64,000 nt of DNA, taken from Chloroflexota bacterium. Its GTDB lineage: Bacteria; Chloroflexota; Dehalococcoidia; Lucifugimonadales; UBA2985. Below are positions 6,013-57,817 of the stretch, in pieces; within the stretch, counting starts at the first letter, position 1; each line of letters opens with the position of its first letter. The translations under genes were made by a program, and so were the position numbers. The stretch covers positions 575 to 64,574 of the forward strand of contig JAQBZZ010000004.1 in the NCBI GenBank assembly GCA_027622595.1. The letters are read 5' to 3'. The notes beneath the pieces are model-generated. The model saw nothing but the letters and a program-made list of their open reading frames with translations, searched no databases and was not told where the DNA came from.

Positions 6013-6049
6013 TGCCAATGCGAACCCCACGTTATGCAGCGAATCTCTA

Positions 6050-12098: not shown

Positions 12099-12195
12099 AT
12101 AATTTTTCCTAATCCAGGTCAGTTCAACATATTTGGGACTGCATACCACTCAACATGGAAGAGATAAAGAATACCGACCGCGGGAACCATTGAAG

Positions 12196-12271
12196 TGGTA
12201 CCCCAGACAGGACTCGAACCCGTAACCTACGGCTTAGAAGGCCGTCGCTCTATCCTTTGAGCTACTGGGGC
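12196..12271 (-). tRNA. tRNA-Arg (anticodon TCT)
   Basis: A 76-nt cloverleaf folded by hand gives GCCCCAG-TA-GCTC/AAAGGATA/GAGC-G-ACGGC/CTTCTAA/GCCGT-AGGTT-ACGGG/TTCGAGT/CCTGT-CTGGGGT-ACCA. The CCA end is encoded. The 1-72 pair is G-U. Confidence 0.85.
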
Positions 12272-12331
12272 ATGATAGCGCATCCATTTTAGCAACTGTG
12301 AACCGAGTCGCCAAGGGCTGGGGGTTAACCC

Positions 12332-12823
12332 CTAGTCATCTGAAGATGTGCTCACCCTGTGCACAGTCAGGCCACCGACTCCTATGTGGCTGATATCCTC
12401 AATGCTCAGCCGGCCAATGGCCCCGTCGGTGGTGAAATGCTTCTGTACCAGGGTGCCGATTGGCCTCGAGGCCACGAGGGCCGCCAGAGCAACGGAAACC
12501 GCCCTTGGGATATTTCTCCACCGTTGTTCAGTTCCCAGGGCCACAGCACAGGCCAACCCGGTCAACGTCGCAGTAACCAAAAGGTTGGTCCCGCAGTAGG
12601 GCGATATGGCCAGCTCTTCTTCTCCCGTCTTCAGGCGTTCCAGAGCCTCATCCGCTGCACGGGATAGCACGTCGGTTGGCACTTCACCGTAGACGAAAAA
12701 TCCCCACTGCGTGGAGTTGCCTCCCAGAATGCCGCGCTCGTTCAGCTTGGAATGAGCAATGGTTATGGTGGCGTGCTCCAGAGCGTGGTTTTTGCGAATC
12801 CTATTCAGAAAATCCAAATTCAA
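12332..12823 (-). CDS. conserved hypothetical protein (N-terminal NHALEHAT motif, hydrophobic central segments)
   Basis: It is a clean 163-aa ORF with protein-like composition. I cannot name the family securely. Confidence 0.5.
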   Translation of the reverse strand: MNLDFLNRIRKNHALEHATITIAHSKLNERGILGGNSTQWGFFVYGEVPTDVLSRAADEALERLKTGEEELAISPYCGTNLLVTATLTGLACAVALGTEQRWRNIPRAVSVALAALVASRPIGTLVQKHFTTDGAIGRLSIEDISHIGVGGLTVHRVSTSSDD

Positions 12824-12952
12824 AATACTCCCAGTAACCGCAGATGCTCTGCCTCAATGATACCATTCTCTGAAACCATATGCATATTTTGGAATCCTTT
12901 AGAATCCAGAGAGAACCCCGCACACGGAGGAACCCGGCAAGCAATCCCTGAC

Positions 12953-21270: not shown

Positions 21271-21361
21271 AGGGTATACGACTCTGCACAGGGGATTATT
21301 AAAAGGGTATCCCAGGTCAGCAGGTGTAAGAAAGTGGAAATTACGGGGTCGCCTTCAAGCC

Positions 21362-21411
21362 GGCATACAGCTTCTTGGATACCATCTTCGAGTCATACTC
21401 CGGTACCTTGC
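21362..21411 (-). pseudogene. displaced remnant of the uvrB 3' end
   Basis: 46 of 50 nt are identical to 22534-22583, the real uvrB 3' end plus stop. It encodes ..VPEYDSKMVSKKL versus the uvrB end ..[13 protein letters not shown], and the stop is mutated (TAA to TAT). Confidence 0.7.
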
Positions 21412-21437: not shown

Positions 21438-22430
21438 CTAGGGTATCTCTATTACGACCGTCCAACTGTCTTGACCGCTGATCTCTAGATAGAAACTGCC
21501 CTTTCGACCATAGATCAAGGTTTCCCCAGAAGGCTCGTTACTGATTAGGGTATCAATCCGCGCACCTGTAGCTGGGTTGTACAACGTAAGGTAAAGATTG
21601 CCCGTCGCTTCCCACTTCAATCGCCACGGCGATGCGTCCACTATGAACGGCAAGGTGTTCTGATGGCCAACGCCAGTGAAACTCGCAATTACTCCTGATG
21701 GGGGTGTTGCCGTTGGTAAAGGTGGGTACGTCGCTGTCGCAGTGGGTTCAGTCGTTGGAGTGGGCATGACTGTAGCTGTGGAAGCAGGGGTAATGGTTGC
21801 CTTCGGCGTAGGAGCGACCGTCGGCGTTAAAGGTATGTATGTCGCTGTCGCAGTAGGTACAATCGTTGGAGTCGGCGTGGCTGCAGCTGATGAAGCAGGG
21901 ATAGTGGTTGCCGTCGGCGTAGGAGCGAACGTCGGTATTGAAGCTATGTACCTCACCGTTGCAGTAGGCACTGAGGTGGCTGTCGGCAGAACTGACGGTC
22001 TGAGTCCACCGTCAGATGGTGATTGCTCATCGTCCTTCACAAGGGCTATTCCTAGTAGCAGGATAACAGAAAAAGCCCCAATCATCCCAAATATGAACCC
22101 CTTAGACACATGAGGCACTTTCCACCTGTCTGAGCGGTCGCCTGGGCGTGGAGGACGCGGGGGCGAGCCTGACTGCGATGGAGGTTGGGGTGGATCAGCA
22201 CTGGCGTAACCTCTTCGGGCAAGTTCATCTTGGTCGTATTGCCTGCGGCGGGTAGGGTCGCGTAAGGCTTCGTAGGCAATGTTCACAAGTTTCATCATCT
22301 CAACCGCATTCGGCGATTTGTTCCGGTCAGGATGCCAATAACTAGCCGCGCGATGATATGCTGCCTGCAGCTGTTCCTCGGAGCAGTCAGGAGCAACACC
22401 CAGGATGGTGTAATAGTTCTGTTCAGCCAT
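21438..22430 (-). CDS. J-domain (DnaJ-like) membrane protein with Pro/Thr-rich 37-aa repeats and a C-terminal beta-rich domain
   Basis: The N-terminus NYYTILGVAPDCSEEQLQAAYHRAASYWHPDRN carries the HPD motif. One TM helix (FIFGMIGAFSVILLLGIALV) follows, then P/T/A repeats, then an 85-aa C-terminal domain. Confidence 0.8.
   Translation of the reverse strand: MAEQNYYTILGVAPDCSEEQLQAAYHRAASYWHPDRNKSPNAVEMMKLVNIAYEALRDPTRRRQYDQDELARRGYASADPPQPPSQSGSPPRPPRPGDRSDRWKVPHVSKGFIFGMIGAFSVILLLGIALVKDDEQSPSDGGLRPSVLPTATSVPTATVRYIASIPTFAPTPTATTIPASSAAATPTPTIVPTATATYIPLTPTVAPTPKATITPASTATVMPTPTTEPTATATYPPLPTATPPSGVIASFTGVGHQNTLPFIVDASPWRLKWEATGNLYLTLYNPATGARIDTLISNEPSGETLIYGRKGSFYLEISGQDSWTVVIEIP
21727..21988. 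repeat. about 2.4 tandem copies of a 111-bp (37-aa) unit inside the J-domain gene
   Basis: Units start at 21727, 21838 and 21949. The protein repeat is PTATxxYIxxxPTxAPTPxATxIPASxAxxxPTPTxx. Confidence 0.8.
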
Positions 22431-22536
22431 TAGCTTCCTTGCCCAAGTTATGACGGTGGCATTACCGCATCTGCAAGGGTGAGATTCCCATTTAGTATGG
22501 CTACCGGAGTAGGCGTAGCTCTTGAGTCAGGCTGGC

Positions 22537-24555
22537 TTACAGCTTTTTGGATACCATATTCGAGTCATACTCCGGTTCCTTGCCGGAGGCCATGACCTTG
22601 CGAAGCTCCACCATTTCATCACGCAGCAGAGCAGCCTTCTCGAACTCCAGCGACCTGGACGCCAGTTTCATCTGGGACTCCAGGTCCTTGATCACACGCA
22701 GCAGGTCGTCCTTGGGCATGTCCCGGTGTACCTCATAGGTCGGGCGTCTCTCGGCCACGGCCTTTACCCGTTCCGTGATATCTCTGATGGCCTTGTGAAT
22801 GCCCTGTGGGGTGATGCCGTGTTCCCTGTTGTGTGCTTCCTGGATTTCCCGCCGCCGATAGGTCTCTCCAATCGCCTTTTTCATGGAGTCGGTCATGTTA
22901 TCGGCGTACATGATGACGTGGCCGTCGGAGTGGCGGGCCGCCCGGCCAATGGTCTGGATTAGCGACGACCCGGAGCGCAGGTATCCCTCCTTGTCCGCGT
23001 CCAGAATGGCAACCAGGCTGACCTCCGGCAGGTCGAGGCCCTCCCGAAGAAGGTTGATCCCGACCACCACGTCGTGCACACCCAGACGGAGGTCGCGGAG
23101 TATCTCGCTGCGCTCCAGCGTGTCGATCTCCGAGTGGAGGTAGTGGGTCTTGACGTTCATCTCCTGTAGATAGTCAGCCAGCTCCTCCGCCATTCGCTTG
23201 GTAAGGGTGGTCACAAGGCACCGCTCTCCCCTGTCCACCCGCGTCCGTATCTGGTACAGCAGGTCGTCGATCTGGCCCTTTGTCGGCTTGACCTCGATGG
23301 TGGGGTCAAGCAGGCCGGTTGGTCGTATGACCTGCTCAACCATCTGCTGGCTGTGGCTGTACTCGTAGGCGCTTGGCGTCGCAGAGACGTATACGGCCTG
23401 GTTTATATGCTTCTCAATCTCATCGAAGTTGAGAGGCCGGTTGTCCATTGCAGACGGCAGACGGAAGCCGTAGTCAACAAGGGTCTGCTTCCTGGACATG
23501 TCCCCGTGGTACATCCCATGCATCTGCGGAATGGTCATGTGGCTTTCGTCTATGAACAGGAGGTAGTCGTCTGGGAAGTAGTCCAGCAGACACCAGGGGG
23601 TGCTTCCCTTTGAGCGTCTTCCAAGGGGAGCGGAGTAGTTTTCGACGCCGGAGCAGTAGCCCGCCTCACGCAGCATCTCCAGGTCGTACCTCGTGCGGTT
23701 CTCAAGACGCTGCGCCTCCAGGAGCTTGCCCTGGTCGCGGAACCAACCGACACGTTCCTCCATCTCCGCCTTGATGTCCTCAATGGCCAGGACCAGCTTC
23801 TCTTCAGAAGTGACGAAGTGCTTGGCAGGATATATATCCACCGAGTCTCGCTCACCGAAGACCTCGCCCGTAAGCGGGTCGAGTTCTAGGATACGCTCCA
23901 CCTCGTCGCCCCAGAACTGGACCTGCAACGCCACGTCCTCATACGCGGGCAGTATCTCCAGCGTATCGCCGCGGACGCGGAACTTTCCACGGGAGAGGTC
24001 CATGTCGTTGCGCTCGTACTGCTGGTTCACGAGCCGGCGAATGAGCTTGGAACGACTGTTCTGCTCCCCCTTGCGGAGGGATACAACGAAGCTCTGATAC
24101 TCCTCAGGCGCGCCCAGACCATAGATGCAGGACACGGAGGCTACTATCAGTACGTCACGTCGGGTGAGGAGTGAGCGAGTAGCGGAGTGACGCAGCTTGT
24201 CGATCTCGTCGTTGATGTTGGAGTCCTTCTCTATATATGTGTCCGTCTGGGGAACATATGCTTCCGGCTGGTAATAGTCGTAGTAGGACACAAAGTACTC
24301 AACGGCGTTGTTGGGGAAGAACTCCCTGAACTCCGTGGCAAGCTGGGCCGCCAGGGTCTTGTTGTGGGCGATGACAAGGGTGGGACGCTGCACCTTCTCG
24401 ACGACGTTGGCCATCGTGAAGGTCTTGCCGCTGCCCGTGACGCCAAGCAGGGTCTGATGCCGCAGGCCCTTGTTCACACCCTCCGCGAGCATGTCTATGG
24501 CCTGGGGCTGGTCTCCCGTTGGCCCGTAGTCTGAAACGATCTTGAATTCTGGCAT
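22537..24555 (-). CDS. uvrB: excinuclease ABC subunit B
   Basis: [10 protein letters not shown] Walker A, helicase motifs and a C-terminal UVR domain are present. Confidence 0.97.
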
Positions 24556-26829: not shown

Positions 26830-26951
26830 GTCATTACGAGGAGACGCAGGCGACCCGTTCGCTCTGGCTCAGGGTAAACTCCGCAATCTGGCCGTGGAGT
26901 GCGCCCCCCTCCAGATTGCCACGCCCCGATTTCATCGGGACTCGCAATGAC
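26830..26951. repeat. nested-palindrome REP/MITE-like element
   Basis: The termini are GTCATTACGAGG...CTCGCAATGAC, and the inner inverted repeat is GCAATCTGG...CCAGATTGC. It shares a 31-nt module, in inverted orientation, with the element at 32270. Confidence 0.85.
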
Positions 26952-29946: not shown

Positions 29947-30059
29947 CCTTATCGCCTATCTTTGGCTTCAAGTTGTTAGCTTCACCACTGTACCCAAGTG
30001 GTGAGGCGGCGTCAATGCAACACACCCCGCAAATGTCCAGTCCCAGAAGTTTGTCTAAT

Positions 30060-30164
30060 GTCATTGCGAGGCCCTACGAAGGAGGGCGGTGTCAATCTGG
30101 CCGTGGGGTGCGTCCCTCCTCCAGATTGCTTCGTCTCCCGACACGTCGGCATCCTCGCAATGAC
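30060..30164. repeat. nested-palindrome REP/MITE-like element
   Basis: The 12-bp termini GTCATTGCGAGG...CCTCGCAATGAC are perfect, and the inner inverted repeat is CAATCTGG...CCAGATTG. Confidence 0.9.
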
Positions 30165-30209
30165 AATTTACGGGTGTATTTCAAAGACACCCCACCACGC
30201 CAGTGGTCC

Positions 30210-31790: not shown

Positions 31791-32100
31791 GATTCCCCCT
31801 ACAAAATAGAAAAATCCCGTCCCCAAGGGACGGGATCATTTGAAAGAATCCCGCGGTACCACCCTTTTTCCCCGGCTTTCAATTACAACTTACACCGGGG
31901 CGCTCATTCAGGGCACCATCATGCCCTCGTCACTGGTAACGGTGTGCGACTCCGGCCCGGTCTACTAACCCAAAGCCCTTTGTGGTTTTCGGCGGGCAGC
32001 TCAGGAGTGATCTTCCAGGGGGCCTTTCGCGTCTGCTCCCACCATGCCAGACTCGCTTGGCGAGGGCGTCCCCCGTACTCGTCTCCGTCTTTGCTTTTGT
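31791..32100 (-). promoter_or_regulatory. T-box riboswitch leader, apparent specifier AUC (Ile)
   Basis: Read on the minus strand, it has the AGUA box in ACGAGUAC and the distal Stem I motif AGCGAGUCUGGCAUGGUGGGAGC. The specifier loop UGGAAG-AUC-A places AUC at 32011-32009. The F-box CCGUUA lies at 31942-31937 and the T-box AGGGUGGUACCGCGGG at 31852-31867. The UGGU bulge matches a tRNA with discriminator A. Confidence 0.85.
31810..31836 (-). terminator. T-box terminator hairpin plus U-tract
   Basis: The minus strand reads ATCCCGTCC-CTTG-GGGACGGGAT followed by TTTTTCTATTTT. Its 5' arm can pair alternatively with the T-box antiterminator. Confidence 0.75.
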
Positions 32101-32137: not shown

Positions 32138-32269
32138 GATTTTAGATGGGTGACTGCCTACTTTGTAGCAAGCGTTCCTCACCACTTGCGATGCATATCT
32201 CTTTCGGGAGTCCGTAAGAACTCTTGAAACGCATGCCAGTGCGGTGTATCTGTAATACACCTTTATAAT

Positions 32270-32391
32270 GTCATTGCGAGGCTCGACGAAGGAGAGCCGT
32301 GGCAATCTGGCGTGGGGTGCCCCCTCTTCAGGCTGCGGAGTTTACCCTGAGCCAGAGCGAACGGGTCGTCCCGATTTATCGGGACTCGCAC
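32270..32391. repeat. REP/MITE-like element with one degraded terminus
   Basis: It starts GTCATTGCGAGG and ends GGGACTCGCAC. It contains TGCGGAGTTTACCCTGAGCCAGAGCGAACGG, the reverse complement of a module in the 26830 element. Confidence 0.8.
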
Positions 32392-38598: not shown

Positions 38599-39501
38599 AT
38601 GGTTACAGTAGGCAGGCTTATCACAGCAATGGTCACTCCCTTCGATGGACAGGGCGAGATCGACTACGCCCAGGCAAGGCGTTTGGCCTCGGCCCTCCTC
38701 GACTCAGGAAGCGACGGGCTGGTGGTATCCGGCACCACAGGGGAGTCCCCCGCCCTCACCAAGGACGAGAAGCTGCGCCTCTTTAAAGAGATAAAGGCAG
38801 AGTTGGGCGACCGCGGCGCGGTCGTGGCCGGCACCGGGAACTACAGCACGGCGGAGAGCATCGAGTTGACCCGTGAGGCAGAGAAGGAAGGCGCGGACGC
38901 CGCTCTCCTGGTTGTCCCCTACTACAACAAGCCAACGCAGGAGGGACTGTACCTGCACTTCAAGGCCATCGCCGAGAGCACCAGCCTGCCCTGCATCCTG
39001 TACAACGTGCCCAGCCGCACAATAACCAGCCTCTCCTGGGAGATTACTTTGCGACTGGCCCAGGTGGACAACATCATAGGAGTGAAGGAAGCCAGCGGCG
39101 ACTTCGACCAGATTGCACGTATCATCGCCGGCGCGCCCAAGGGTTTCCAGGTCTGGAGCGGCAACGACAGCGATACCTTTGGCATCATGACGATGGGCGG
39201 CTACGGCGTCGTCAGCGTGGCCTCGCACCTGGTTGGACGTCAGATTAAAGGGATGATGGACATGATACTGGCAGGGAAGACAGCAGAAGCGGCCTCGGAG
39301 CACCTTCGTCTGACCCCTATATTCAAGGGCCTCTTCATCGTGTCAAACCCCATCCCGGTGAAGTACGGCGTAAACCAGGCAGGCTTCAACGTCGGCAAGC
39401 CCAGACTACCCCTTACGGAGCCTGACGAAAGGACGGCTCAACAGCTTCAGGCGATGATGAAGGAGTACGCCATAGACCTGCCTGTCACCGCACGGGTGTA
39501 G
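38599..39501 (+). CDS. dapA: 4-hydroxy-tetrahydrodipicolinate synthase
   Basis: GTTGES, YNVPSRT and the IIGVKEASG lysine motif are present. Confidence 0.95.
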   Translation: MVTVGRLITAMVTPFDGQGEIDYAQARRLASALLDSGSDGLVVSGTTGESPALTKDEKLRLFKEIKAELGDRGAVVAGTGNYSTAESIELTREAEKEGADAALLVVPYYNKPTQEGLYLHFKAIAESTSLPCILYNVPSRTITSLSWEITLRLAQVDNIIGVKEASGDFDQIARIIAGAPKGFQVWSGNDSDTFGIMTMGGYGVVSVASHLVGRQIKGMMDMILAGKTAEAASEHLRLTPIFKGLFIVSNPIPVKYGVNQAGFNVGKPRLPLTEPDERTAQQLQAMMKEYAIDLPVTARV

Positions 39502-39536
39502 CGCAGCGAATTTAGGAGGATAGAGTTTTAAGTTAT

Positions 39537-40532
39537 TTGGCTGAGTACATTTGGGTTGATGGGCAACAACCCACTGCCAAGCTGCGTTCCAAAGGCAAAG
39601 TGGTTCCCGACGGAGAGGAGCCGCCCATCTGGGGTTTCGATGGTTCGAGCACCAACCAGGCACCCGCCGATAAATCCGACTGTGTTTTGAATCCGGTCTT
39701 TGTCTGCCCCGACCCCATACGCGGGGGTGCAAACAAACTGGTTATGTGTGAGGTAATCCTCATCGACATGAGCCCACATCCCTCCAACACGAGGGCGGGC
39801 TGTGAAGAGGCGTCCAAGAAGTACGCCGAACTGGACACATGGTTTGGGATTGAGCAGGAATACACCTTCTTCGAAGGCACCCGGCCACTGGGCTGGCCGG
39901 AGAATGGTTTTCCCGCTCCTCAGGGAGGTTACTACTGCGGCGTCGGCTCCGATGAGGTGTTTGGACGTCCCATCGTGGAGGCACATCTAGAGGCTTGTCT
40001 GACGGCTGGACTGGCCATCGGCGGGATCAATGGCGAGGTCATGCCCGCTCAATGGGAATTCCAAATCGGTCCGGTGGGCACCCCGGCGGTGGCCGACCAC
40101 CTCTGGGTGGCCCGGTGGCTGCTCTACCGCATTGGTGAAGAATTCGACATCAGCGCCACCCTCGACCCAAAGCCGATCAGGGGCAACTGGAATGGGGCAG
40201 GCGCCCACACCAATTTCTCGACCATCCAGATGAGGAACGGCTACGACGCTTGCATCGCCGCAGCCGAGGCTTTGGGCACTCGGGCCGACCTCCACATCGC
40301 CAACTACGGCGACCGGATAGAAGAGCGGCTGACGGGGCAACACGAGACCTGCTCCTACAAGGATTTCAGGTATGGCGTTTCGGACCGCGGCGCGTCGGTC
40401 AGGATTCCCTGGCAGGTGGCCCGAGACAGGAAGGGTTACATCGAAGACCGCCGTCCCAACGCCAACTGCGACCCATACGTGGTAACCAGGCTCATCCTGG
40501 ATACGGTCTGCGGAGCAGCTACCGGCAAGTAA
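39537..40532 (+). CDS. glnII: glutamine synthetase, type II (eukaryote-like, short form)
   Basis: The N-terminus (M)AEYIWVDG...LRSK and the GSII motifs FDGSST, GIEQEY and NGAGAHTNFS are present. The start codon is TTG. Confidence 0.8.
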   Translation: MAEYIWVDGQQPTAKLRSKGKVVPDGEEPPIWGFDGSSTNQAPADKSDCVLNPVFVCPDPIRGGANKLVMCEVILIDMSPHPSNTRAGCEEASKKYAELDTWFGIEQEYTFFEGTRPLGWPENGFPAPQGGYYCGVGSDEVFGRPIVEAHLEACLTAGLAIGGINGEVMPAQWEFQIGPVGTPAVADHLWVARWLLYRIGEEFDISATLDPKPIRGNWNGAGAHTNFSTIQMRNGYDACIAAAEALGTRADLHIANYGDRIEERLTGQHETCSYKDFRYGVSDRGASVRIPWQVARDRKGYIEDRRPNANCDPYVVTRLILDTVCGAATGK

Positions 40533-40570
40533 CGATTTCCATTCTCCTGGAAAGCAAAAGGGGCGACCCG

Positions 40571-40681
40571 TCACCCGTGCAGAAAACTTTCCAGCGCCTT
40601 GGTAAGCTGCTGGGGTCGGTGAAGCTGAATGTCGTGGGCCGTGTCCGGAAACCACTCAACACGTCCGTCGCGGACGAGTTC
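40571..40681 (-). pseudogene. displaced remnant of the alpha/beta-hydrolase 3' end
   Basis: It encodes ELVRDGRVEWFPDTAHDIQLHRPQQLTKALESFLHG*, against ELVRDGREEWFPDTAHDIQLHRPSELAKVLESFLHG* in the intact gene at 42685. By hand count, 84 of 91 nt are identical in the core. Confidence 0.8.
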
Positions 40682-40728
40682 CCGCACCGCTCATCCTGAG
40701 CCTGTCGAAGGACATAAGGGAAAAACAG

Positions 40729-42660
40729 ATGCCTACGCGTTTCCTGATCTTAGTTTTATCTATCGGCCTCATGACGGCTGTCACAGTGGCTTGTGAACAG
40801 CCAGCAGAGGATGGACATGACAAATATAACTCCTTGCTTCTTGGCGACGCGAAGAAGCTATCCATAGACGACCTGGTCGATTTGGAGCTGGATGTACCCG
40901 GGGATGTACCCCACAACCAGCAAGCTGGTATTCTGCTGCGAGTCCGCCACGTTGACCCTGACGCGTACCTATCCCTGAGCAACGCCCGCCCTTCCCTTCG
41001 CGTCCTCCAAGAAGACGGCACGGAGATTTACCAGTCGGGGGACAACTACACGGAGACGGCCCGCTACAATACCATCGCACCAGGCGAAACGGCGGAATAC
41101 CGGATGTCCTGGCCGCACCTCTTCCGGGAGCAATGCGTGTCCTTAGACACGGGGTTGGGGTGTCCCGCCCCACCAGGCCGTTACCAGATACAGGCCTCGC
41201 TGTTGGTCGGCTTTGTACAGGTACTTCAGGCCGGTGAGACGCTGGGAGTGGCTGAGCAGAGCGAGGTGAAAGCCGATCCCACATGGCTCACTGTGACCGG
41301 GGAGGCTGGGGATCCGAATGTGTCGCCCTTTTGGGATCCCGTGAATCTGGAGGATCCGATCTTGACACATCCCGCCAGACGCCTCTCCGGCGGCACACAG
41401 GCTCCGGAGCAGGTAAGTCTGGGAGAAACGGCAATATTCAAGATAATCGTGGGAAACGGATTCGACGAGCCGTTGGAGGTGCCGCTACGCCAGCCGATGT
41501 ACGACTTTACAGTGTCCACACTGGATAGCACAGAAGTCTGGCGCTGGTCAGATACTCAAGAGACGGACGATACTCCGGTGGCGTTCCGACTGGAGCCGGG
41601 CCAGTGGGAGGAATTCGAGGTGGAGTGGGACCTGCGTGGCCGGAACGGGGATCCCGTCCCGGCTGGCTTGTATGAGGTCGAAGGCTGGCTTCGGTTGGCC
41701 CCAGAGGGAGAGATATCACTAACTCGGCAGTTCATGTTTGTTGGTTCGAAGCCCTCCTTGAGGGACGTGATGGAAGTTGAGTTGCTGGCGCCCAAGTCGA
41801 CCGCTGCCAGAGAAGACGTGCGTATGCGGGTCATCATCAAGAACGTTAGCGGTAGTATCTTACGCTTGTGGTATGGTGCTGACTACGTGGTCTTCCAGGT
41901 GCGGGACGGCAGTGATAACACCATTGGGCCAGAAGCGGGGGCCTATCTGCTCTGGCTTGGTGGGATGCAGTTGTTTCCAGGACAGGTGCGTGTGGTAGAG
42001 CAAATCAGGTCGCTGGAGCGCGACCTGGAGGGTTTCCCCCTGGAGCCAGGGGAGTACCAGATCAAGGGCATCGTCAAGTTCTCTCTTCAAGACCCACCAC
42101 ACGGTAGCCGCAGCTATGAGCGACTGGAAACCTCTGTCCACACCCTGACCATCACAGAGGCTCCGCTGCCCGAGTATGCCAAGGCAATCGAGCTGGAGTT
42201 GACCGCACCCTCGGAAGTGCGGGCTGGTGAGTCGGTGCCAATGGACATGCGCATCACCAACACCAGTGATAAACCAGTCATCCTGTGGTGGAGTAGCGAC
42301 AAAGTAGGCCCCAGACCCAACGACATTGAAATCGTCGTCTTCCGCGACGGCGAACCTGTCTGGCGTGCGACCTCTGCCCACGGCGTACAGTACCAGGGAA
42401 CAATAACCCTGGGGCCAGGAGAGTCGCAAACCATGAGCGGTATGTCATTCCGTGCTACAAACGGTAGATACAAAAGCTCAGGAGACCCGTGGGAGTGGGA
42501 CCAGCGGGCAGACTGCGGCGAGCCGGTCGAGCCCGGTACTTACACAGTCCGCGGCGTAGTCAACGTCTCACCGCCAGAGACGATGGAGCAGGAACCACCC
42601 TTCACAGCAGAGCGCACGACCATCGCCACCGAACCCCGGGAATTAGTCATAATCCCGTAA
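40729..42660 (+). CDS. lipoprotein with four BsuPI-like (intracellular proteinase inhibitor fold) repeats
   Basis: A signal peptide with lipobox (TVAC) is present. Four units of about 110-150 aa each end in PG.Y.v.g (PPGRYQIQA, PAGLYEVEG, PGEYQIKG, PGTYTVRG). Unit 2 reads QPMYDFTVSTLDSTEVWRWSD...LEPGQ, like the BsuPI signature. Confidence 0.55.
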   Translation: MPTRFLILVLSIGLMTAVTVACEQPAEDGHDKYNSLLLGDAKKLSIDDLVDLELDVPGDVPHNQQAGILLRVRHVDPDAYLSLSNARPSLRVLQEDGTEIYQSGDNYTETARYNTIAPGETAEYRMSWPHLFREQCVSLDTGLGCPAPPGRYQIQASLLVGFVQVLQAGETLGVAEQSEVKADPTWLTVTGEAGDPNVSPFWDPVNLEDPILTHPARRLSGGTQAPEQVSLGETAIFKIIVGNGFDEPLEVPLRQPMYDFTVSTLDSTEVWRWSDTQETDDTPVAFRLEPGQWEEFEVEWDLRGRNGDPVPAGLYEVEGWLRLAPEGEISLTRQFMFVGSKPSLRDVMEVELLAPKSTAAREDVRMRVIIKNVSGSILRLWYGADYVVFQVRDGSDNTIGPEAGAYLLWLGGMQLFPGQVRVVEQIRSLERDLEGFPLEPGEYQIKGIVKFSLQDPPHGSRSYERLETSVHTLTITEAPLPEYAKAIELELTAPSEVRAGESVPMDMRITNTSDKPVILWWSSDKVGPRPNDIEIVVFRDGEPVWRATSAHGVQYQGTITLGPGESQTMSGMSFRATNGRYKSSGDPWEWDQRADCGEPVEPGTYTVRGVVNVSPPETMEQEPPFTAERTTIATEPRELVIIP

Positions 42661-42684
42661 CCTACCCAGTGCCAGAGCTCCCCG

Positions 42685-43533
42685 TCACCCGTGCAGAAAA
42701 CTTTCCAGCACCTTGGCAAGCTCACTGGGTCGGTGAAGCTGGATGTCGTGGGCCGTGTCCGGAAACCACTCCTCGCGACCATCCCTGACCAGTTCCTGCG
42801 CCGCACGCACCGCCTCTCGTTTCCTGTCGTTTGCCTCCACCCTGTCCAACGAGGGACTCAGAGCGGCCGCGAAGAGCACGGGCATTTCAAGCTTTGGGTA
42901 AAGCTCCCTGGCGTTGAGGTCGCCCATAGCCTGTAGGATACGGACGTTGTTCTCCCGCGAAAGGCGCTCGCTTATGGAACCGTCGGGGTTGACGGTGACG
43001 CTGGCCATGAGTATCTCCTCTATCTCAGGGGTCATTACGTCACGAAATCCACCACCAGACGCCTGTAGGTAAGTCTGCCTGTTCTGGTAAACCTCGGGCG
43101 GTGCCATCATCTGCGTATAGTCGGGCGGCGATCCATCCAGCGTCCTGCGGCGGCCTCCAAACCCTCCATCTACCAGCGCCAGGTGAGATATTGTTCCAGG
43201 ACTGGAAGCTGCCAGGCTCAGCGCTACCCCCGCGCCCCAGGAGTGGCCGGCCAGCAGCGCTCCCTCTATGCCTATCTCCCGACATAGCTTCTCCACGTCG
43301 CCGGCGACGGTCTGGTAGTCATACCCCCAGTCGGGCTTGTCCGATTGGCCGTGGCCGCGTAAATCCACGGATATCACCCTGTGCTCCTGGGCAAGGAGAC
43401 GAGCGGTAAGAGACCAGTACTCGGCGCACACAGTCAGACCGTGAAGCAGCAACACAGGAGAGCCGTCTCCCTCCCACTCCAGGTACCGAAGGGATATTTC
43501 TGAATTTGCAGTAACCTTAGCTATGGGATTCAT
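42685..43533 (-). CDS. alpha/beta hydrolase
   Basis: The HGLT oxyanion region and the GHSWG nucleophile elbow are present. I trimmed the start to the ATG at 43533. Confidence 0.8.
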   Translation of the reverse strand: MNPIAKVTANSEISLRYLEWEGDGSPVLLLHGLTVCAEYWSLTARLLAQEHRVISVDLRGHGQSDKPDWGYDYQTVAGDVEKLCREIGIEGALLAGHSWGAGVALSLAASSPGTISHLALVDGGFGGRRRTLDGSPPDYTQMMAPPEVYQNRQTYLQASGGGFRDVMTPEIEEILMASVTVNPDGSISERLSRENNVRILQAMGDLNARELYPKLEMPVLFAAALSPSLDRVEANDRKREAVRAAQELVRDGREEWFPDTAHDIQLHRPSELAKVLESFLHG

Positions 43534-43689
43534 GTATTTGGAAAGAGCCGTGCCATTCCAGCTACGGGACCATCGTAGTCTTACTGGCCATTGTAACTCC
43601 ACAGGGAGATGAGTCAAGGCGCGGTAGACCCTGTGGGCCTTGACGTGAGGCTCATAGCAACGGGATAATCAATTCCCCTGGCAACAAAT

Positions 43690-44307
43690 ATGAGTGACTT
43701 CTTACCGGCTTCCGTTTCCATTGCAGGTGCTTTCCTGTTGGGGTCGTTGCCGTTCGCGTACTGGGTAGCCAGGGCCGTGGCGGGAATAGACATCCGCCTA
43801 GCGGGAAGCGGCAACCCGGGAGCACTCAACGTCTACCGCCAGGTGGGAGGAAAGGCCGCACTGGCGGTCGTGCTTCTCGACGTAGCGAAAGGGGCTGTGG
43901 CGGTCCTGCTGCCGCGGTGGCTCGGAGCTCCTGAGCCGGTCCTGTACCTGGCGGCATTTACCGCGGTGGCGGGACACAACTGGTCTGTATTTCTCGGACT
44001 GCGGGGAGGAAAGGGCGCTGCAACCGTCGCCGGCATATCTTTGACCCTGCTACCCTTGCTGACGGTCGTAGTAGTGCCGTTCCTGGCACTGGCTTTGATG
44101 ATGACAAAGAACGCAGTCGTATCCATTGCCCTTACCTTCATCCTTCTCAACGTGCTCACCATCGCCACAGCCCAGCCCTTAGCACAGATTGGCCTCTGCA
44201 TGGGTCTATCCATCCTTGTGGCAGGGACTCACCTCTACCGCGCGGGAGCACAGATAGTGCCTGCTGTTAAAGAGAAGCGATGGACTGACATCACTCGTGT
44301 GGAGTGA
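43690..44307 (+). CDS. plsY: glycerol-3-phosphate acyltransferase PlsY
   Basis: The GSLPFAYWV and GSGNPGALNV motifs are present, with 5-6 TM segments. Confidence 0.9.
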   Translation: MSDFLPASVSIAGAFLLGSLPFAYWVARAVAGIDIRLAGSGNPGALNVYRQVGGKAALAVVLLDVAKGAVAVLLPRWLGAPEPVLYLAAFTAVAGHNWSVFLGLRGGKGAATVAGISLTLLPLLTVVVVPFLALALMMTKNAVVSIALTFILLNVLTIATAQPLAQIGLCMGLSILVAGTHLYRAGAQIVPAVKEKRWTDITRVE

Positions 44308-44434
44308 GAGTTCTTCACACACATCTTCGTATCAAACAAATGAGATATAATGAGGCGGCAGGCTTGCCATGCTGTCTGTGGTAAGCTTGCCGAACTATCG
44401 AAGATTGAATTTACAGAAAACAAATTTACAAAAT

Positions 44435-45643
44435 ATGCAAAATACTCAGAATTCCGTAATGGTCCGGGTCCACGAGATTGCCCTGAAGGGCAAGAACCGC
44501 CCTCTATTCTTCGACCAGCTGGAACGCAACCTACGGCAGGCGCTGCGTGGAATGGCAGTGGAACAGGTGCGCAATAGGCACATGGGAGTGGAGATCACCC
44601 TTGCGCCGGAAGCGCCCTGGGACGAGATAGCGAAAAGAATCAAGCAGGTATTCGGCGTGGTCAAGTTCTACCGCTACCACAGAGTGACCCCCTCCATGGA
44701 GGCCATCAAAGAGTTCCTGGAGAGCGAACTAACCAAACTTACCTTCAGCACCTTCCGCATAACAGCCAAACGGGGCAATAAGTCTTTCCCCCTGACCTCG
44801 CCTGAGATGAACCAGGAGCTGGGAGCCTTTGTGCAGCAGCTCACCGGAGCAAAGGTCAACCTGAAGCAGGCAGAGGTCAACGTCTTTGTCGAGGTCTTGC
44901 CGGGTGAGGCACTGCTGTACTTCGAGGAAACGACAGGGCCGGGCGGCCTGCCTGTAGGCACAGGTGGCAAGGTTGCTGTACTCCTCTCCGGAGGTATTGA
45001 CTCCCCTGTTGCGGCATGGCGCATGATGAAACGAGGTTGCCAGGTCCTCCTCGTCCACTTCCACAGCTTCCCTCTGGTGGACGGATCGTCCCGGGAGAAG
45101 GCCATAGAACTGGTGGAACTGCTGAACCTGTACCAGTTCCGCTCCACCCTGCTCCTGGTGCCCTTTGCCGACGTGCAGCGGGAAATCATCCTCTCCGTTC
45201 CACCGGCCTACCGTGTCGTCATATATCGACGGTTCATGACCCGCATTGCGGAACGACTGGCTATTGAGCACGGGGCCAAGGCCCTGGTGACTGGCGAGAG
45301 CCTCGGGCAGGTGGGGTCTCAGACCCTCGACAACCTGGTCACAGTCCGCAACGCGGTGACAATGCCTATTCTCAGCCCCCTTATCGGCATGGACAAACAG
45401 GAGATCATCGGCGAGGCCCGTCACATCGACACCTACCCCATATCAATACTACCGGACGAGGACTGCTGCACCCTCTTCGTCCCCAAACATCCGGTCACTC
45501 GGAGCACTCCTGAGGAGGTGGAACGACTGGAGGAGGCATTGGACATCCCCGCACTGATCGAGAGTGCGATGTCCCAGGTTGAGATCAAGCACTTCACCCG
45601 GGACGGTGTTTCTTCTGAAAGAAGCTCAGTAGGGGTGGGGTAG
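44435..45643 (+). CDS. thiI: tRNA 4-thiouridine(8) synthase ThiI (no rhodanese domain)
   Basis: VRVHEIALKGKNR, a THUMP domain and the SGGIDSPVAAW PP-loop are present. The start is ambiguous between 44369, 44435 and 44459. Confidence 0.85.
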   Translation: MQNTQNSVMVRVHEIALKGKNRPLFFDQLERNLRQALRGMAVEQVRNRHMGVEITLAPEAPWDEIAKRIKQVFGVVKFYRYHRVTPSMEAIKEFLESELTKLTFSTFRITAKRGNKSFPLTSPEMNQELGAFVQQLTGAKVNLKQAEVNVFVEVLPGEALLYFEETTGPGGLPVGTGGKVAVLLSGGIDSPVAAWRMMKRGCQVLLVHFHSFPLVDGSSREKAIELVELLNLYQFRSTLLLVPFADVQREIILSVPPAYRVVIYRRFMTRIAERLAIEHGAKALVTGESLGQVGSQTLDNLVTVRNAVTMPILSPLIGMDKQEIIGEARHIDTYPISILPDEDCCTLFVPKHPVTRSTPEEVERLEEALDIPALIESAMSQVEIKHFTRDGVSSERSSVGVG

Positions 45644-47705: not shown

Positions 47706-50207
47706 ATGTCAACCAAGACACCAAAGAAGATAGTTCTGCCTGTGGAAGGGATGACCTGTGCCTCCTGCGTCTCCCACGTTGAAGGTGCGCTGAAGGAAGT
47801 ATCAGGCGTGCTATCGGCCAACGTCAACCTTGCCACCGAACAGGCCACGGTTGAATTCGACGACGACAAGGCCACCATCTCTGAGCTAATCCACGCCGTG
47901 GACGACTCCGGGTACAAGACAGGTCTGGCGCACATCACCCTTAACATCGGTCAAATGACCTGCGCCTCTTGCGTTGTCCACGTAGAGCACGCCCTGAAAG
48001 AGGTTGAGGGCGTCCTTTCGGCCAACGTCAACCTGGCCACAGAGCAGGCCACGGTGGAGTATATCCCTGGCATTGCCACACTGGCAGACATGAAGGCCAC
48101 CGTTGACGACGCCGGCTACATCGTGGAAGGCGTGGCGGGAGATGAGTCCACCAACGACGAGGAGCGCCTGTCCCGCACCAAGGAGATCAAGGCACTGCGG
48201 AAGAAGCTGCTCTTCGCCTCTGGATTTGGAGCCGTTATCTTCCTTGGCAGCTTCAAGGAGTGGTTCCCCTGGATGCCCTCCTTCCTCCAAAACTGGTACG
48301 TGCTGTGGGCGCTGGCCACTCCTGTGCAGTTCTGGGCCGGCGCGCAGTTCTACCACGGTGCCTGGGGTGCTCTGAAGCATAAGACCACCAACATGAACAC
48401 CCTCATTGCCGTTGGAACAAGCGCCGCCTACTTCTACAGCGCCGCGGCCACCATCTTCCCTGACTTCTTCCGTGTGGAGCAGGCCGAAGCCAAGGTCTAC
48501 TTCGACACGGCGGCCATTATCATCGCGTTCATCCTCATGGGACGCTTCCTGGAGGCCAGAGCCAAGGGGCAGACGTCCGAGGCCATACGGAAACTGATGG
48601 GCCTGCAACCCAAGACGGCCAGCGTCATTCGTGATGGACAGCAAATGGACGTGCCAATCGAGGATGTGGTGCCAGGCGACGTCATAGTCGTGCGTCCGGG
48701 AGAGAGCATCCCTGTGGACGGCGTGGTCATCGAGGGTTCATCCTCGGTGGACGAGAGCATGCTGACCGGGGAGAGCCTCCCCGTTGAGAAGATGGCGGAC
48801 TCGCCCGTATTCGGGGCCACGATCAACAAGACCGGCAGCTTCCAGTTCCGTGCCACCAAGGTTGGCACGGATACGGCGCTTGCCAGAATCATCAAGCTGG
48901 TGCAGGAAGCCCAGGGCTCCAAGGCCCCCATACAACGGCTGGCGGACCTGGTTTCCAGCTACTTTGTGCCGATAGTAATCGGGATTGCCCTTGTCACATT
49001 CGGAATCTGGCTCTTCACCGGGCCGCCCCCCGCGTTCACATACGCCCTGCTGAACATGGTGGCGGTGCTGATCATCGCCTGCCCCTGCGCCCTTGGGTTG
49101 GCAACTCCAACGGCCATCATGGTCGGCACCGGCAAGGGGGCCGAATGGGGCGTCCTCATCCGCAGCGCCGAGGCCCTTGAGACGGCCCACAAGGTGGATG
49201 TCATCGTCCTCGATAAGACCGGGACCCTCACCATGGGCAGCCCGAAGGTAACGGACGTGATCGTAGATGGAGTGTCTGAGGAAGACCTGCTCATGCTGGC
49301 GGCATCGGCGGAAAAGGGGTCGGAGCACCCCCTTGGTGAGGCGATAGTCGCCTCCGCGGTAGAACACGGACTGGCTCTGCAAGAGGTCAAGGAATTCTAC
49401 GCCATACCCGGTCGCGGCATCGAGGCCAGCGTGAACGGCACCCATGTCACCCTTGGCAACCTGGCCCTCATGCAGGAGCGCAGCTACGCACTGAACGGTC
49501 TGGAGACCAGGGCTGTTGAGCTGTCCACCCAGGGAAAGACACCCATGTACATCGCACTTGGAGACCGCGTAGGAGGCATCATCGCCGTGGCCGACACCCT
49601 GAAACCGGAGGCAAAGGACGTGGTCAAGTCCCTCCATGCGATGGGCCGTGAGGTGATCATGCTCACCGGCGACAACCGCCGCACCGCGGAGGCCATCGCA
49701 AGAGACCTCGGCATAGACCGTATACTGGCCGAAGTTCTGCCGGACGGCAAGTCGCAGGAGATCAAGAAACTTCAGGCCGAAGGGAAAGTGGTCGCGATGG
49801 TTGGCGACGGCATCAACGATGCACCCGCCCTGGCACAGGCCCAGGTTGGCATCGCCATCGGCACCGGCACCGACGTGGCCATGGAGGCGGCGGACATAAC
49901 CCTGGTGAGGGGAAACCTGGGCGGCATCGTGGAAGCCCTTGCCCTGAGCAAAGCGACCATGCGCACCATCAAACAGAACCTCTTCTGGGCCTTTTTCTAC
50001 AACACCGCACTTGTGCCCATCGCCGCCGGAGTGCTCTACCCCGTATTCAGCGGAGGCAGTGTGCCGGGGCCACTTCAGCCCTTCCTGGGAGAGTTCGGCT
50101 TCCTCAACCCTGTGCTGGCAGCAGCAGCTATGGCCATCAGCTCTTTCACCGTGGTTAGCAACTCCCTCAGACTACAGCGTTACAAGGGAGCAAGAATCAA
50201 CAAGTAG
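47706..50207 (+). CDS. copA: copper-translocating P1B-type ATPase
   Basis: Two N-terminal HMA domains (GMTCASC twice), the CPC transmembrane motif, DKTGTLT and GDGINDAP are present. Confidence 0.95.
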
Positions 50208-54406: not shown

Positions 54407-54416
54407 TGTTTGCCCC

Positions 54417-54452
54417 CTACTCCATATCTTCCCACGTCTGCCCCGCCTTCAC
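54417..54452 (-). pseudogene. displaced remnant of the polA 3' end
   Basis: It encodes VKAGQTWEDME*, against the polA C-terminus LKTGYTWGDME*. A 17-nt perfect core (CCCCCTACTCCATATCT) is shared with 55009-55025. Confidence 0.55.
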
Positions 54453-54681
54453 CTTAAGCCAACCCAGATGTCGGCAGTGATCTCACGGCCCATGATTTCC
54501 GCTACCTCTCGCAGCAACACTCGCAACTGCGGCACTGAATATTCGGCATTGGATGGGACGGCCAAGCGGTACTGCTGATAGACCATGAACTGGTGGCGGG
54601 TGCCGGAAAGGGGCCGTCAAAACCCAGCTTTCGGAGGCGCCGCACAAACTCGCGGCGTCTACAGGGTCTCCACCGGCTCAC
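54449..54681 (-). pseudogene. hicA: HicA/YcfA-like toxin gene with a frameshift
   Basis: A GTG start gives MSRWRPCRRREFVRRLRKLGFDGPF. The frame then shifts near 54603-54612. The other frame continues GTRHQFMVYQQYRLAVPSNAEYSVPQLRVLLREVAEIMGREITADIWVGLR*. The joined sequence matches the HicA pattern (LGF....G..H). Confidence 0.6.
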
Positions 54682-54925: not shown

Positions 54926-55012
54926 GGCAATAGTGCACCTCGTTACCACCTCAAATCATACCACTAAACCCGTTATGCCACATACTAAACCACCGTCTTT
55001 TTACCTGACCCC

Positions 55013-57817
55013 CTACTCCATATCTCCCCAGGTGTAACCTGTCTTCAACTCCACACTCAGTGGCACGATAAGTTCAAGGGCCGCGGGCATCAACTCCAGC
55101 ACCATCGCCCGCATGACCTCCATCTCCTCCACCGGCACCTCGAAGATCAGCTCGTCGTGGACTTGCAGGATCATCCTGGTACGCAGGCCATCTTCCTGCA
55201 TACGCTTGTCTATGTTTATCATCGCCAGCTTGATGATGTCCGCGGCGGTGCCCTGAATGGGCATGTTCACCGCCATCCGCTCGGCGGCCTGCCTCACCTG
55301 GAAGTTGGATGCGTTGACCTCAGGGATGTAGCGGCGGCGGCCACACATCGTCTCAAGGTAGCCCAGCTTCCTGGCCTGCGCCTTGGTGGCCTCCAAGTAC
55401 TCCTGAATGCCGGGGTATCTGGCAAAGTAGCTTTCGATGAACTTGGCCCCCTCGTCACGGGGCAGGTCGGTCTGCTGCGAGATGCCGTAGGCGCTGAGTC
55501 CGTATACAACTCCGAAGTTCATTATCTTGGCGATGCGCCTCATGTCCGATGTCACGGCGTCGAGGGCCACCCCGTACACCTGGGACGCGGTCGCCGCGTG
55601 GATGTCCTCGCCACGCAGGAAGGCGTCCACCAGCCCCTTGTCCTCGGAGAGATGTGCAAGCACTCTCAACTCTATTTGCGAATAATCGGCGGCAAGGAGC
55701 GTCCACCTTGGCGCGTCCTGGGCAACGAAGGCCTTGCGCACCTCCCGGCCAAGCTCCGTACGGACGGGTATGTTTTGCAAATTGGGGTCGTTGCTGGAGA
55801 CGCGCCCCGTTGCCGACCCCGTCTGGTTGTAGCTTGTATGCACCCGCCCGGTCCAGTGGTTGATGAGTTGCGGAAGGGCGTCCACGTAGGTCGACTTCAG
55901 CTTGGCGAGCTCCCTGTATTCCAGGATGCCGTCAAGGACCTGAGGGGCCCTTGGATCCGCGCCCTCCGCATGCCCCTCGTTTATCATCACCTTCAGGTTT
56001 TCTAACACCGAGGCATCGGTGGAGTAGCCCGTCTTGGTGCGCTTGGTCTTTGGAAGCCGCAGCTCGTTGAACAGCACCTCGGCCAGTTGCTGGGTGGAGT
56101 TGAGCATGAACCGATGGCCCACGGTCTGAAGCACCTCATCCTCCACCTGGAAAAGGCGTTCGCCAAGAGTCTTCGACATCTCATTGAGGCGTTCTGCATT
56201 CAGGGATACGCCGTTGCGCTGTATCCTCACAAGCACAGGCACCAGGGGCACCTCCATATTGGCGAAAACGTCCCTCAGCTTGCTCTCAGGCTTCATCTCG
56301 ACCTCGAACAGGTCTCGCAAACGCTGCGTCATGTCTGCGTCCGCGGCGGCGTACTTCGATGCCTCGCCGACGGGCACCTGTGCCATTGTCTTTTGATTAC
56401 GGCCCGTGCCGATGAGGGCATCGATGTGGGTCATCTCAACGTTCAGGCGGGTGAAGGCGAGGCTCTTGAGACCGATGGCCTTCTCTCCAAGCAGGTGCGC
56501 CGCCACCATCGTATCGAAGTCAAGGTTGCGCACCTCAATGCCGTAGTTGGCAAGCACCGTCATATCGTAGTTGCCGTTGTGGGCGGTTTTGGCCACGCTG
56601 GGGTCTTCCAGCAGGGGCTTGAGGAGGGCCAAGGCTTCTTCGATGGGAATCTGTTTTCCCTCCAAGTGCCCAACCGGTATGTAGCTCGCGGTGCCTGAGG
56701 CGCTTGAAAATGAGAGGCCAACAAGGTCGCAGGCCATCGGGTCCTTGCCGGTGGTCTCCAGATCGAAGGCGAAGCTGCCCGCGCCCTGCAAATCCGATAT
56801 AAGGGCCACCAGGTCTTCGACGTTGTCAACGGTGTGGTAGTCCCCTTCTATTGCAGTCTCCGCGGCCATGAGCACTCCCTGGGACGCCTGCTCCGTCGAG
56901 TCGTCCGCGACCTTGGGAACACGGGCCACGATGCTGTTGAACTCAAGCTCACGCAGCAGGGAAAGCACCTTCTCGCGGTCGTAGCGCCAGAAGCGGCACG
57001 CTTCCGCGTCCAGGGTGATCGGCACCTCGTCGACTATGGTGGTGAGTTCAAGGCTCTGCCTTGCATCGGCCTCGTGGTATGCCAGCAGATCGCGTATCCG
57101 TGGTGGTGCTACCTTATCGAGGTTGGCATAAATCCCATCAATGCTGCCATAGTCCTGTATCAGCTTGATGGCGGTCTTCACACCTATGCCGGGGACTCCC
57201 CGAATGTTGTCCGAGGTATCACCCTGCAGGGCCTTCACATGCGGCTGTTGAGTCGGGGTCAAGCCGCCATACCGCTCACGGACCGCTGCCAGGTCGTAGA
57301 TGACCCTGTCCTGGATGCTGCGGTTCAGGGCAACACGCACGGTGGGGGAAACAAGCTGGAGGGTGTCGGTGTCGCCTGTGAGGATGATGGTGTCCATGTC
57401 CTGTTCGGTGGCCTGCCGGCAGAGGGTGCCAATAACGTCGTCGCCCTCGTACTCCTCCACCTCGAATATGGGGACGTTGAAAGCCTCCATCAGGCGTCGC
57501 ACCCAGGGAAACTGCCCTCTCAGGTCCTGGGGGGTCTCGGGCCTCTGTGCTTTGTAATCGGCGTACATGATGTGCCTGAAGGTGGGCGCAGGCAGGTCAA
57601 AAGCGATGGCGCAGTGGCTCGGTCTCCACTCCTGAATGGCCTTTATGAATGCGTTGGCGAAGCCGTACACGCCCCGCACGTCCTCTTCGGTCTTGCTCAA
57701 CGTGAGGGGCGCAGGAATGGCATGCCACGCCCTGTGCACCATCGCATGCCCGTCCATGAGCATGAGGAACGGCCTTTCCGGCAAGAGAGGCATTGTTTCC
57801 GGTTTAGTATTTGGCAT
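55013..57817 (-). CDS. polA: DNA polymerase I
   Basis: It has a 5'-3' exonuclease N-terminus and a 3'-5' exonuclease domain (FAFDLETTG). Pol motifs A (DYSQIELR), B (RRIAKIMNFGVVYG) and C (QVHDE) are all present. Confidence 0.97.
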   Translation of the reverse strand: MPNTKPETMPLLPERPFLMLMDGHAMVHRAWHAIPAPLTLSKTEEDVRGVYGFANAFIKAIQEWRPSHCAIAFDLPAPTFRHIMYADYKAQRPETPQDLRGQFPWVRRLMEAFNVPIFEVEEYEGDDVIGTLCRQATEQDMDTIILTGDTDTLQLVSPTVRVALNRSIQDRVIYDLAAVRERYGGLTPTQQPHVKALQGDTSDNIRGVPGIGVKTAIKLIQDYGSIDGIYANLDKVAPPRIRDLLAYHEADARQSLELTTIVDEVPITLDAEACRFWRYDREKVLSLLRELEFNSIVARVPKVADDSTEQASQGVLMAAETAIEGDYHTVDNVEDLVALISDLQGAGSFAFDLETTGKDPMACDLVGLSFSSASGTASYIPVGHLEGKQIPIEEALALLKPLLEDPSVAKTAHNGNYDMTVLANYGIEVRNLDFDTMVAAHLLGEKAIGLKSLAFTRLNVEMTHIDALIGTGRNQKTMAQVPVGEASKYAAADADMTQRLRDLFEVEMKPESKLRDVFANMEVPLVPVLVRIQRNGVSLNAERLNEMSKTLGERLFQVEDEVLQTVGHRFMLNSTQQLAEVLFNELRLPKTKRTKTGYSTDASVLENLKVMINEGHAEGADPRAPQVLDGILEYRELAKLKSTYVDALPQLINHWTGRVHTSYNQTGSATGRVSSNDPNLQNIPVRTELGREVRKAFVAQDAPRWTLLAADYSQIELRVLAHLSEDKGLVDAFLRGEDIHAATASQVYGVALDAVTSDMRRIAKIMNFGVVYGLSAYGISQQTDLPRDEGAKFIESYFARYPGIQEYLEATKAQARKLGYLETMCGRRRYIPEVNASNFQVRQAAERMAVNMPIQGTAADIIKLAMINIDKRMQEDGLRTRMILQVHDELIFEVPVEEMEVMRAMVLELMPAALELIVPLSVELKTGYTWGDME

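Follow-up and report, generated by a model that had tools for sequence, protein, structure and literature searches.

We examined the end of an alpha/beta-hydrolase gene in a 64,000-nt stretch of DNA (the window; positions 575-64574 of contig C3) from an uncultured marine bacterium of the SAR202 group (Chloroflexota). The end of this gene is present twice, once on the resident gene and once as a displaced 3' remnant on the far side of a predicted lipoprotein gene. This scar is real and of a known kind, probably 3'-end displacement, rather than the trace of a new mobile element; it shows that extra genes were spliced in here, probably by ordinary recombination with DNA of related bacteria. The explanation we favour, with moderate confidence, is one-ended, homology-anchored recombination between two variants of a gene-gain hotspot, i.e., homology-facilitated illegitimate recombination (HFIR); the recombination mechanism itself we infer from sequence comparison. 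The host is a metagenome-assembled genome (MAG) of 86 contigs and 1.67 Mb with an estimated contamination of 4.9%, and its placement in SAR202 was taken from the names on close protein homologues. The comparison databases hold very few close relatives of the host population; the set used here included genomes (G001, G002 and G010; G002 is of the same genus), contigs of relatives (L numbers), and lineages found through hydrolase orthologues (P numbers).

A repeat search of the region revealed a single strong direct repeat of 124 nt at 40567-40690 and 42681-42804, with 86% identity, a spacing of 2114 and a genome-wide BLAST E-value of 8.9e-37. Counted exactly from the stop-codon end, all of the first 29 positions, 84 of the first 91 and 23 of the next 33 are identical (107 of 124 in total), and the copies still have an identical stretch of 41 nt in common. 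These counts agree with an earlier sequence-only reading of this DNA, which had given 84 of 91 followed by about two-thirds identity. The repeat search, translation and counts identify the right-hand copy (42681-42804, minus strand) as the functional 3' end of the resident hydrolase gene. The hydrolase coding sequence lies at 42685-43533 on the same strand (Pfam Abhydrolase_1/6; 282 aa when the start is set by homologues beginning MNPIAK), and its longest open reading frame (ORF) at 42685-43617. The left-hand copy (40567-40690, minus strand) encodes only the final 39 codons and the stop (40571-40690), plus 4 nt downstream. Its minus-strand translation reads ...SG-stop-AVRELVRDGRVEWFPDTAHDIQLHRPQQLTKALESFLHG-stop, for comparison with ...AAQELVRDGREEWFPDTAHDIQLHRPSELAKVLESFLHG-stop at the C-terminus of the full gene; an in-frame stop stands just upstream, and no hydrolase homology was found upstream of this copy, as had been claimed when it was described as a C-terminus with nothing before it.

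Directly after the stop of the remnant, a promoter/terminator scan detected a terminator-like hairpin with a T-run (40561-40576, minus strand; GGGTGACGGGTCGCCC followed by CTTTTGCTTT). At the full copy, homology with the remnant ends 4 nt past the stop, inside the position of this hairpin; no such hairpin is present there, and beyond that point the flank of the full copy runs on into the flank of the lipoprotein gene. Because the remnant has kept a terminator-like hairpin after its stop, we read it as the displaced original 3' end of the hydrolase gene, left in its native context.

At its inner end, the remnant adjoins CCTGAGCCTGTCGAAGGA, the loop of a repetitive extragenic palindromic (REP)-type hairpin unit (40686-40722, plus strand; CCGCTCAT-CCTGAGCCTGTCGAAGGA-CATAAGGG). 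CCGC belongs to both the hydrolase fragment and the REP unit, a very short overlap that comes to 3 nt (CGC) when L071, the closest relative (ENA ERZ24794639), serves as proxy. Allowing up to 3 mismatches, the unit has 58 matches in the genome, with the typical form CCCGCTCAT...CATGAGCGGG; it is the repeat module at which the distal copy had been said to end. The sole ORF between the copies (40729-42660, plus strand) encodes a 643-aa predicted lipoprotein with BsuPI-like modules (Pfam BsuPI, E 1.7e-18), confirming that a single gene of this type lies within the period of 2114. Its signal peptide, read from the sequence, ends ...TVAC. The L071 ortholog has 357 aa, and the REP unit preceding the gene, the signal peptide and the C-terminus are common to both. 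The window gene (40729-42660) has about four BsuPI-like modules vs about two in L071 (3019-4092), while both ends are nearly identical; the module number of this lipoprotein therefore appears to change quickly. A lipoprotein query gave no match in the genome collection and only three homologues in the protein collection. A homologue in genome G010 lies at an unrelated locus, judged by gene neighbours, with no dapA or hydrolase gene nearby. An Rfam scan of the region gave no match, and a metagenome scan with the hydrolase query returned a single close contig whose 3' end is absent.

Comparison with relatives located the insertion site. On contig C63 of G002, dapA and the hydrolase gene are direct convergent neighbours 33 nt apart, and the window has 3.2 kb extra at this point. 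The same adjacency was found in the contigs of five metagenomic lineages (P0009, P0010, P0013, P0019 and P0022), whose hydrolase orthologues show 80-83% identity and which have no internal repeats there; the empty-site spacers in relatives measure 24-328 nt. In the window, dapA, the ancestral convergent neighbour of the hydrolase gene by these adjacencies, lies at 38599-39501 on the plus strand (Pfam DHDPS, E 5e-91). The empty site is thus dapA/hydrolase, as in most related SAR202 contigs. The expectation that relatives would have an empty insertion site was correct, but its placement between glnII and the hydrolase gene was not.

L071 shows 91-94% nt identity to the window across dapB/asd/dapA and 88% over hydrolase-plsY-thiI. 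Its order is dapA, REP units, the gene for the 357-aa lipoprotein and a 59-nt hydrolase remnant, followed in the opposite orientation by hicA, an antitoxin gene and the hydrolase gene, with no glnII and no remnant to the left of the REP unit. The junction consisting of the lipoprotein stop, about 20 nt and the hydrolase tail is homologous in the window and L071, and relative to L071 the extra DNA of the window is 39503-40687 (glnII plus the remnant), not the lipoprotein gene. The hydrolase remnant of L071 itself (59 nt, 83%) brackets hicAB at the same gene end, and is a second, independent instance of the architecture. At least six configurations of the site were observed: empty; REP only (L065, where the REP unit of the window sits in the empty-site spacer); lipoprotein plus hicAB (L071); glnII plus lipoprotein (the window); rich in insertion sequences (IS; L057); and REP in the gene tail (L077). 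Taken by gene order, the dapA/hydrolase junction is a hotspot of gene gain in this SAR202 lineage.

Two of these contigs have further features. L057 (ENA ERZ26167216, P0005 lineage) carries inverted IS3-family copies, 98% identical, at 5316-6847 and 10948-12492, which flank the hydrolase gene; one copy lies between plsY and the hydrolase gene, and dapA is not within 7 kb. On L077 (ENA ERZ1643211 contig, 5060-5100), the final codons of the hydrolase orthologue contain a GCAGGGCACGCCCTGC-type REP unit, and its translation extends and alters the C-terminus of the protein (...HGAGHALPPQ-stop).

Next to dapA, the window carries a glnII fragment of 1,037 nt (39507-40543, plus strand), which starts 30 nt upstream of glnII and reaches 11 nt beyond it. 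The coding sequence (39537-40532) begins with TTG and has lost the 3 codons with which its homologues open. The fragment shows 87.5% nt identity to L072 over exactly 39507-40543 and about 87% to L072-L075, in which glnII comes after amtB-glnB. The glnII genes of the family relatives compared, both same-genus genomes included, are at other locations and show 65-67% nt and 70-73% aa identity. The window glnII is a foreign, single-gene import. A donor with glnII beside the hydrolase gene was sought and none was found; the closest glnII homologues stand in amtB-glnB-glnII contexts. The host has a second glnII on contig C83 (1469-2452), a contig of 2.5 kb that could be contamination. The window and C83 copies are 88% and 80% identical, respectively, to the amtB-glnB-glnII clade, with about 70% aa identity to the same-genus copies.

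These observations can be assembled into the following scheme. Two variants of the locus would have met in one cell, one with glnII beside the hydrolase gene and the other with the REP-lipoprotein block beside it. DNA of a related cell would have recombined by homology on one side only, and the other side would have been joined illegitimately, with a 3-4-nt microhomology (CGC/CCGC) linking the edge of the REP hairpin to a point 120 nt before the hydrolase stop. With homology on one side and an illegitimate join on the other, the incoming block would therefore be added, not swapped, and one hydrolase tail would be left over as a dead fragment; no element-encoded recombinase would be needed. One parental configuration, the REP-lipoprotein block convergent with the hydrolase tail and without a left-hand remnant, is supplied by L071. 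Two histories are, by this comparison, equally parsimonious: REP-lipoprotein-tail may have entered a genome with glnII, or glnII-tail may have entered a genome with the lipoprotein. Because L071 has the lipoprotein block without glnII or the remnant, the account in which the lipoprotein gene inserted and duplicated the gene end would be one of these two histories. The claim of a lipoprotein cassette insertion accordingly held for the insertion site, and as to what was inserted it covers one history of two.

The same architecture occurs elsewhere in the genome. A displaced uvrB remnant lies at 21355-21411 (minus strand; 57 nt, 89%), with the other copy at 22527-22583 and a J-domain protein gene (21438-22430) as the intervening DNA, or cargo. 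A displaced polA remnant lies at 54413-54454 (minus strand; 42 nt, 81%), with the other copy at 55009-55050 and a cargo of 554 nt in which a UPF0150 (HicB-like) gene has a small ORF as its partner. Both repeats are real, as had been proposed when the hydrolase site was likened to uvrB and polA. The uvrB site spans 108 nt in G002 vs 1318 nt in the window, and the polA site 447 nt in G001 vs 2926 nt in the window. In both G001 and G002, the sequence downstream of uvrB corresponds to what flanks the remnant in the window and not to what flanks the full gene; the remnants are therefore read as original gene ends.

A whole-genome census of gene tails against their downstream 8 kb recovered uvrB, hydrolase and polA and four further sites. 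At the C47 site (12586-12842), a tail of 63 nt (97%, 2 differences) brackets a non-coding, hairpin-rich, REP-like cargo of 131 nt; the tail belongs to a gene for a 546-aa solute-binding-like lipoprotein, and this is the youngest example. At the C67 site (18585-19486), an 80-nt tail of a gene for a 552-aa ATPase-like protein brackets a DUF6883 and DUF4926 pair, which is toxin-antitoxin-like. A second REP family (TGGGTGCAGGGCGTGCCCTGC) adjoins the C67 remnant. By their repeats, at least these two sites share the architecture besides uvrB and polA. The sites with shorter tails are candidates: C77, with a 40-nt tail and an ORF with a haem-binding domain, and C65, with a 30-nt tail and a DUF6789-like membrane protein just under the Pfam cut-off. 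The outer edge of the duplication falls 0-10 nt past the stop in the four aligned window and L071 cases and in C47, and in the clear cases it never reaches into the neighbouring gene; at C67, the last 10 nt of the remnant are replaced by a REP unit. Under the proposed recombination, the edge would lie there because two alleles with different neighbours were joined.

Several observations weigh against this recombination. No genome with dapA-glnII-hydrolase was found among the relatives, and this parent is hypothetical. A microhomology of 3-4 nt is weak evidence, and no step in sliding identity against L071 and five other lineages marks a recombination breakpoint in the flanks. At uvrB and polA, the remnants have the look of simple copies decayed in situ, which suits a target duplication just as well. 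The two copies are identical over 29 nt from the gene end in the window and over 23-24 nt in L071, with 6 differences between the genomes, and such identity within each genome is not predicted without later gene conversion. Finally, the balance of changes on the remnant (five synonymous, five nonsynonymous) is not significant as a sign of a separate functional allele.

That balance comes from polarising the 17 differences between the copies with seven orthologous tails, which assigned 10 changes to the remnant and 6 to the full gene, with 1 left ambiguous. Six codons differ synonymously only, five of them among codons 5-10; this pattern hints that the two tails diverged as functional alleles, in a test that was not significant. 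Divergence at four-fold sites between the window and L071 is 0.245. With ten remnant changes in 120 nt set against this value, the scar appears old, its age being roughly half to all of the window-L071 split. This estimate uses the divergence of the remnant, as had been suggested. Divergence is uneven along the repeat (7 of 91 vs 10 of 33 positions; Fisher p = 0.003). This unevenness is what gene conversion, or a crossover within the conserved WFPDTAHDIQLHRP segment, would produce, whereas simple uniform decay would not.

The same data bear on the strongest rival, in-situ insertion with a long target duplication, a serious one although we consider it rather unlikely. Foreign DNA would have been copied or ligated in where the gene end suffered a staggered break or where replication switched template; the 124 nt between the break or switch points would have been doubled, so that the copies were identical at birth and the distal copy then decayed. 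The spread of changes over both copies and the even balance on the remnant suit this account, as do the uvrB and polA remnants, which behave as neutral decaying copies of the resident tail, the two differences in the C47 tail around its short non-coding insert, and the identity of the tail-proximal 23-29 nt within each genome. It would, however, require L071 to have secondarily lost both the remnant and glnII; it does not account for the uneven divergence; and the outer edge, always within 10 nt of the stop and never in the neighbour, argues against it. Nor is there a consistent hairpin at the boundaries to mark a stall site: among five examples, only the hydrolase remnant has a hairpin at its outer boundary.

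Less probable still, in our view, is a decayed or trans-mobilised element of the kind seen at Escherichia coli icd. Prophage e14 (and phage 21), inserted in the 3' end of icd, leaves an icdC pseudogene, according to the account of Hill et al. 1989 given in PMC13626634. In such a model a site-specific recombinase encoded elsewhere would have inserted a small element bearing a hydrolase 3' end of its own, and the identical 29 nt at the stop would be the att core. The architecture is that of icd/icdC as this source describes it, and of the partial tRNAs at Prochlorococcus tycheposons (10.1101/2020.12.28.424599). Perfect identity extends from the stop codon for 29 nt in the window, 23-24 nt in L071 and 17 nt at polA, and about eight tyrosine and two to three serine recombinase genes are present on other host contigs. 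However, such a core is missing from the uvrB repeat, and the identity at the stop, for which gene conversion would account as well, is the only positive support for a possible e14-like, trans-mobilised element. No recombinase or remnant of one was detected in or beside any of the six cargos, which range from 131 to 1990 nt and share neither sequence nor end motif, and the lipoprotein homologue of G010, by its neighbours, is not at this locus. PF00589 and PF00239 matches near the site were likewise absent, all of them being on other contigs. At the hydrolase site, the cargo ORF has BsuPI as its only Pfam match and no recombinase or transposase, the repeat search of 39000-45000 found no inverted repeats, and GC content is uniform, with no compositional anomaly in the region. 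The hicBA cargo at polA and the hicAB cargo of L071 are unrelated at the DNA level. The idea of a self-contained mobile cassette is not borne out by these results, which include no terminal repeats or motif common to the other sites.

A transposon, IS or miniature inverted-repeat transposable element (MITE) was considered and rejected: there are no inverted repeats and no transposase, the duplication is 124 nt long, and the cargo ends share nothing.

Two remaining explanations are scarcely credible. The left copy could be what is left of a second full-length hydrolase paralogue decayed in place, and it does have residues of other functional orthologues (VR, RVEW, LT); but none of the relatives examined has a second hydrolase gene between dapA and the hydrolase gene, homology breaks off sharply where the REP unit begins, 120 nt from the stop, and no other hydrolase paralogue in the genome exceeds 36% identity, so insertion, as first proposed, is preferred to paralogue decay. 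Stitching of two strain variants of the locus during assembly, for which the contig number and contamination estimate of the MAG leave some room, is as hard to sustain, since the copies differ at 17 of 124 positions, their flanks are unrelated, the contig is continuous over 64 kb, an analogous remnant occurs in an independent assembly (L071) and the same structure recurs at further host sites; the earlier judgement that assembly duplication would overturn the case thus finds little to support such a duplication.

Other repeats occur in the window. Clusters of GTCATTGCGAGG-type and other REP/MITE-like repeats, direct and inverted, lie at 26851-26951, 30056-30195 and 32239-32368, and a T-box leader (31823-32100, minus strand) adjoins one such cluster. 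The J-domain protein gene at the uvrB site contains a tandem repeat of 111 nt (37 aa; 84% identity) at 21717-21938. A 104-nt direct repeat (47751-47854 and 47955-48058; 78%, 204 nt apart) within an 833-aa ORF (47706-50207) is possibly a duplicated N-terminal domain.

The favoured recombination has close parallels. HFIR-type displacement has been proposed for orphan 3' ends in type VI secretion system (T6SS) and Rhs loci (Kirchberger et al. 2017, PMC5361080), and C-terminal displacement in Rhs and contact-dependent inhibition (CDI) loci is the subject of Jackson et al. 2009 (PMC2935791), as cited in that paper. In those loci, as proposed here, incoming DNA finds its anchor in the conserved part of a gene by homology and delivers a new gene end along with further genes behind it; the previous end is shifted downstream and becomes an orphan, a recombinase is not required, and events stack. 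Those loci encode polymorphic toxins, whereas the target here is an ordinary metabolic gene (with uvrB and polA as further targets in the window); the tail replaced here is a near-equivalent allele with no new toxin domain, and the cargo consists of unrelated genes (lipoprotein, glnII, toxin-antitoxin pairs). At e14/icd, as far as PMC13626634 describes it, an intact gene likewise receives a replacement 3' segment, the diverged original end stands at the far side of the insert, and recombination between the copies restores a chimeric functional gene; e14, however, is described there as 15 kb long, with an integrase of its own and a defined att core, whereas the insert here spans 2 kb, holds a single gene and has neither an integrase nor an att-like common motif. 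In Prochlorococcus, partial tRNA copies border tycheposons and genomic islands (Hackl et al., bioRxiv 10.1101/2020.12.28.424599), which resemble the present case in that successive insertions at one site of a streamlined marine genome each leave a partial end of the target gene, and in having degenerate remnants without integrase. They differ in that tRNA genes are the targets and the elements carry tyrosine recombinases, none of which is linked to the site here.

Homologous recombination between the two copies, which still agree over an uninterrupted 41 nt, could remove the lipoprotein gene, leaving an intact chimeric hydrolase gene with its original terminator. A bolder proposal, which we regard as doubtful, is that displaced ends serve as portable homology arms: recombination between the copies would loop out the cargo as a circle with one hybrid tail. 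Equally doubtful is the next step, in which a single RecA-type crossover could return such a circle to that gene end in related cells. If true, cassettes of one or two genes (lipoprotein, hicAB, DUF6883/DUF4926, J-domain protein) would have a locus-specific mobility that needs no recombinase, and streamlined SAR202 genomes would gain genes by this as one of their main routes.

The site reveals no new mechanism. It is a dated, sequence-level example of single-gene gain in a small-genome ocean bacterium without visible mobile-element machinery, the genes gained including a lipoprotein gene, a second glutamine synthetase gene and toxin-antitoxin pairs. The gain is additive, it falls where conserved genes end, and its scar can be read. 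For annotation, short 'orphan' ORFs beside accessory genes may be displaced gene tails, and in metagenome-assembled genomes such scars could serve to count gene-gain events and to date them.

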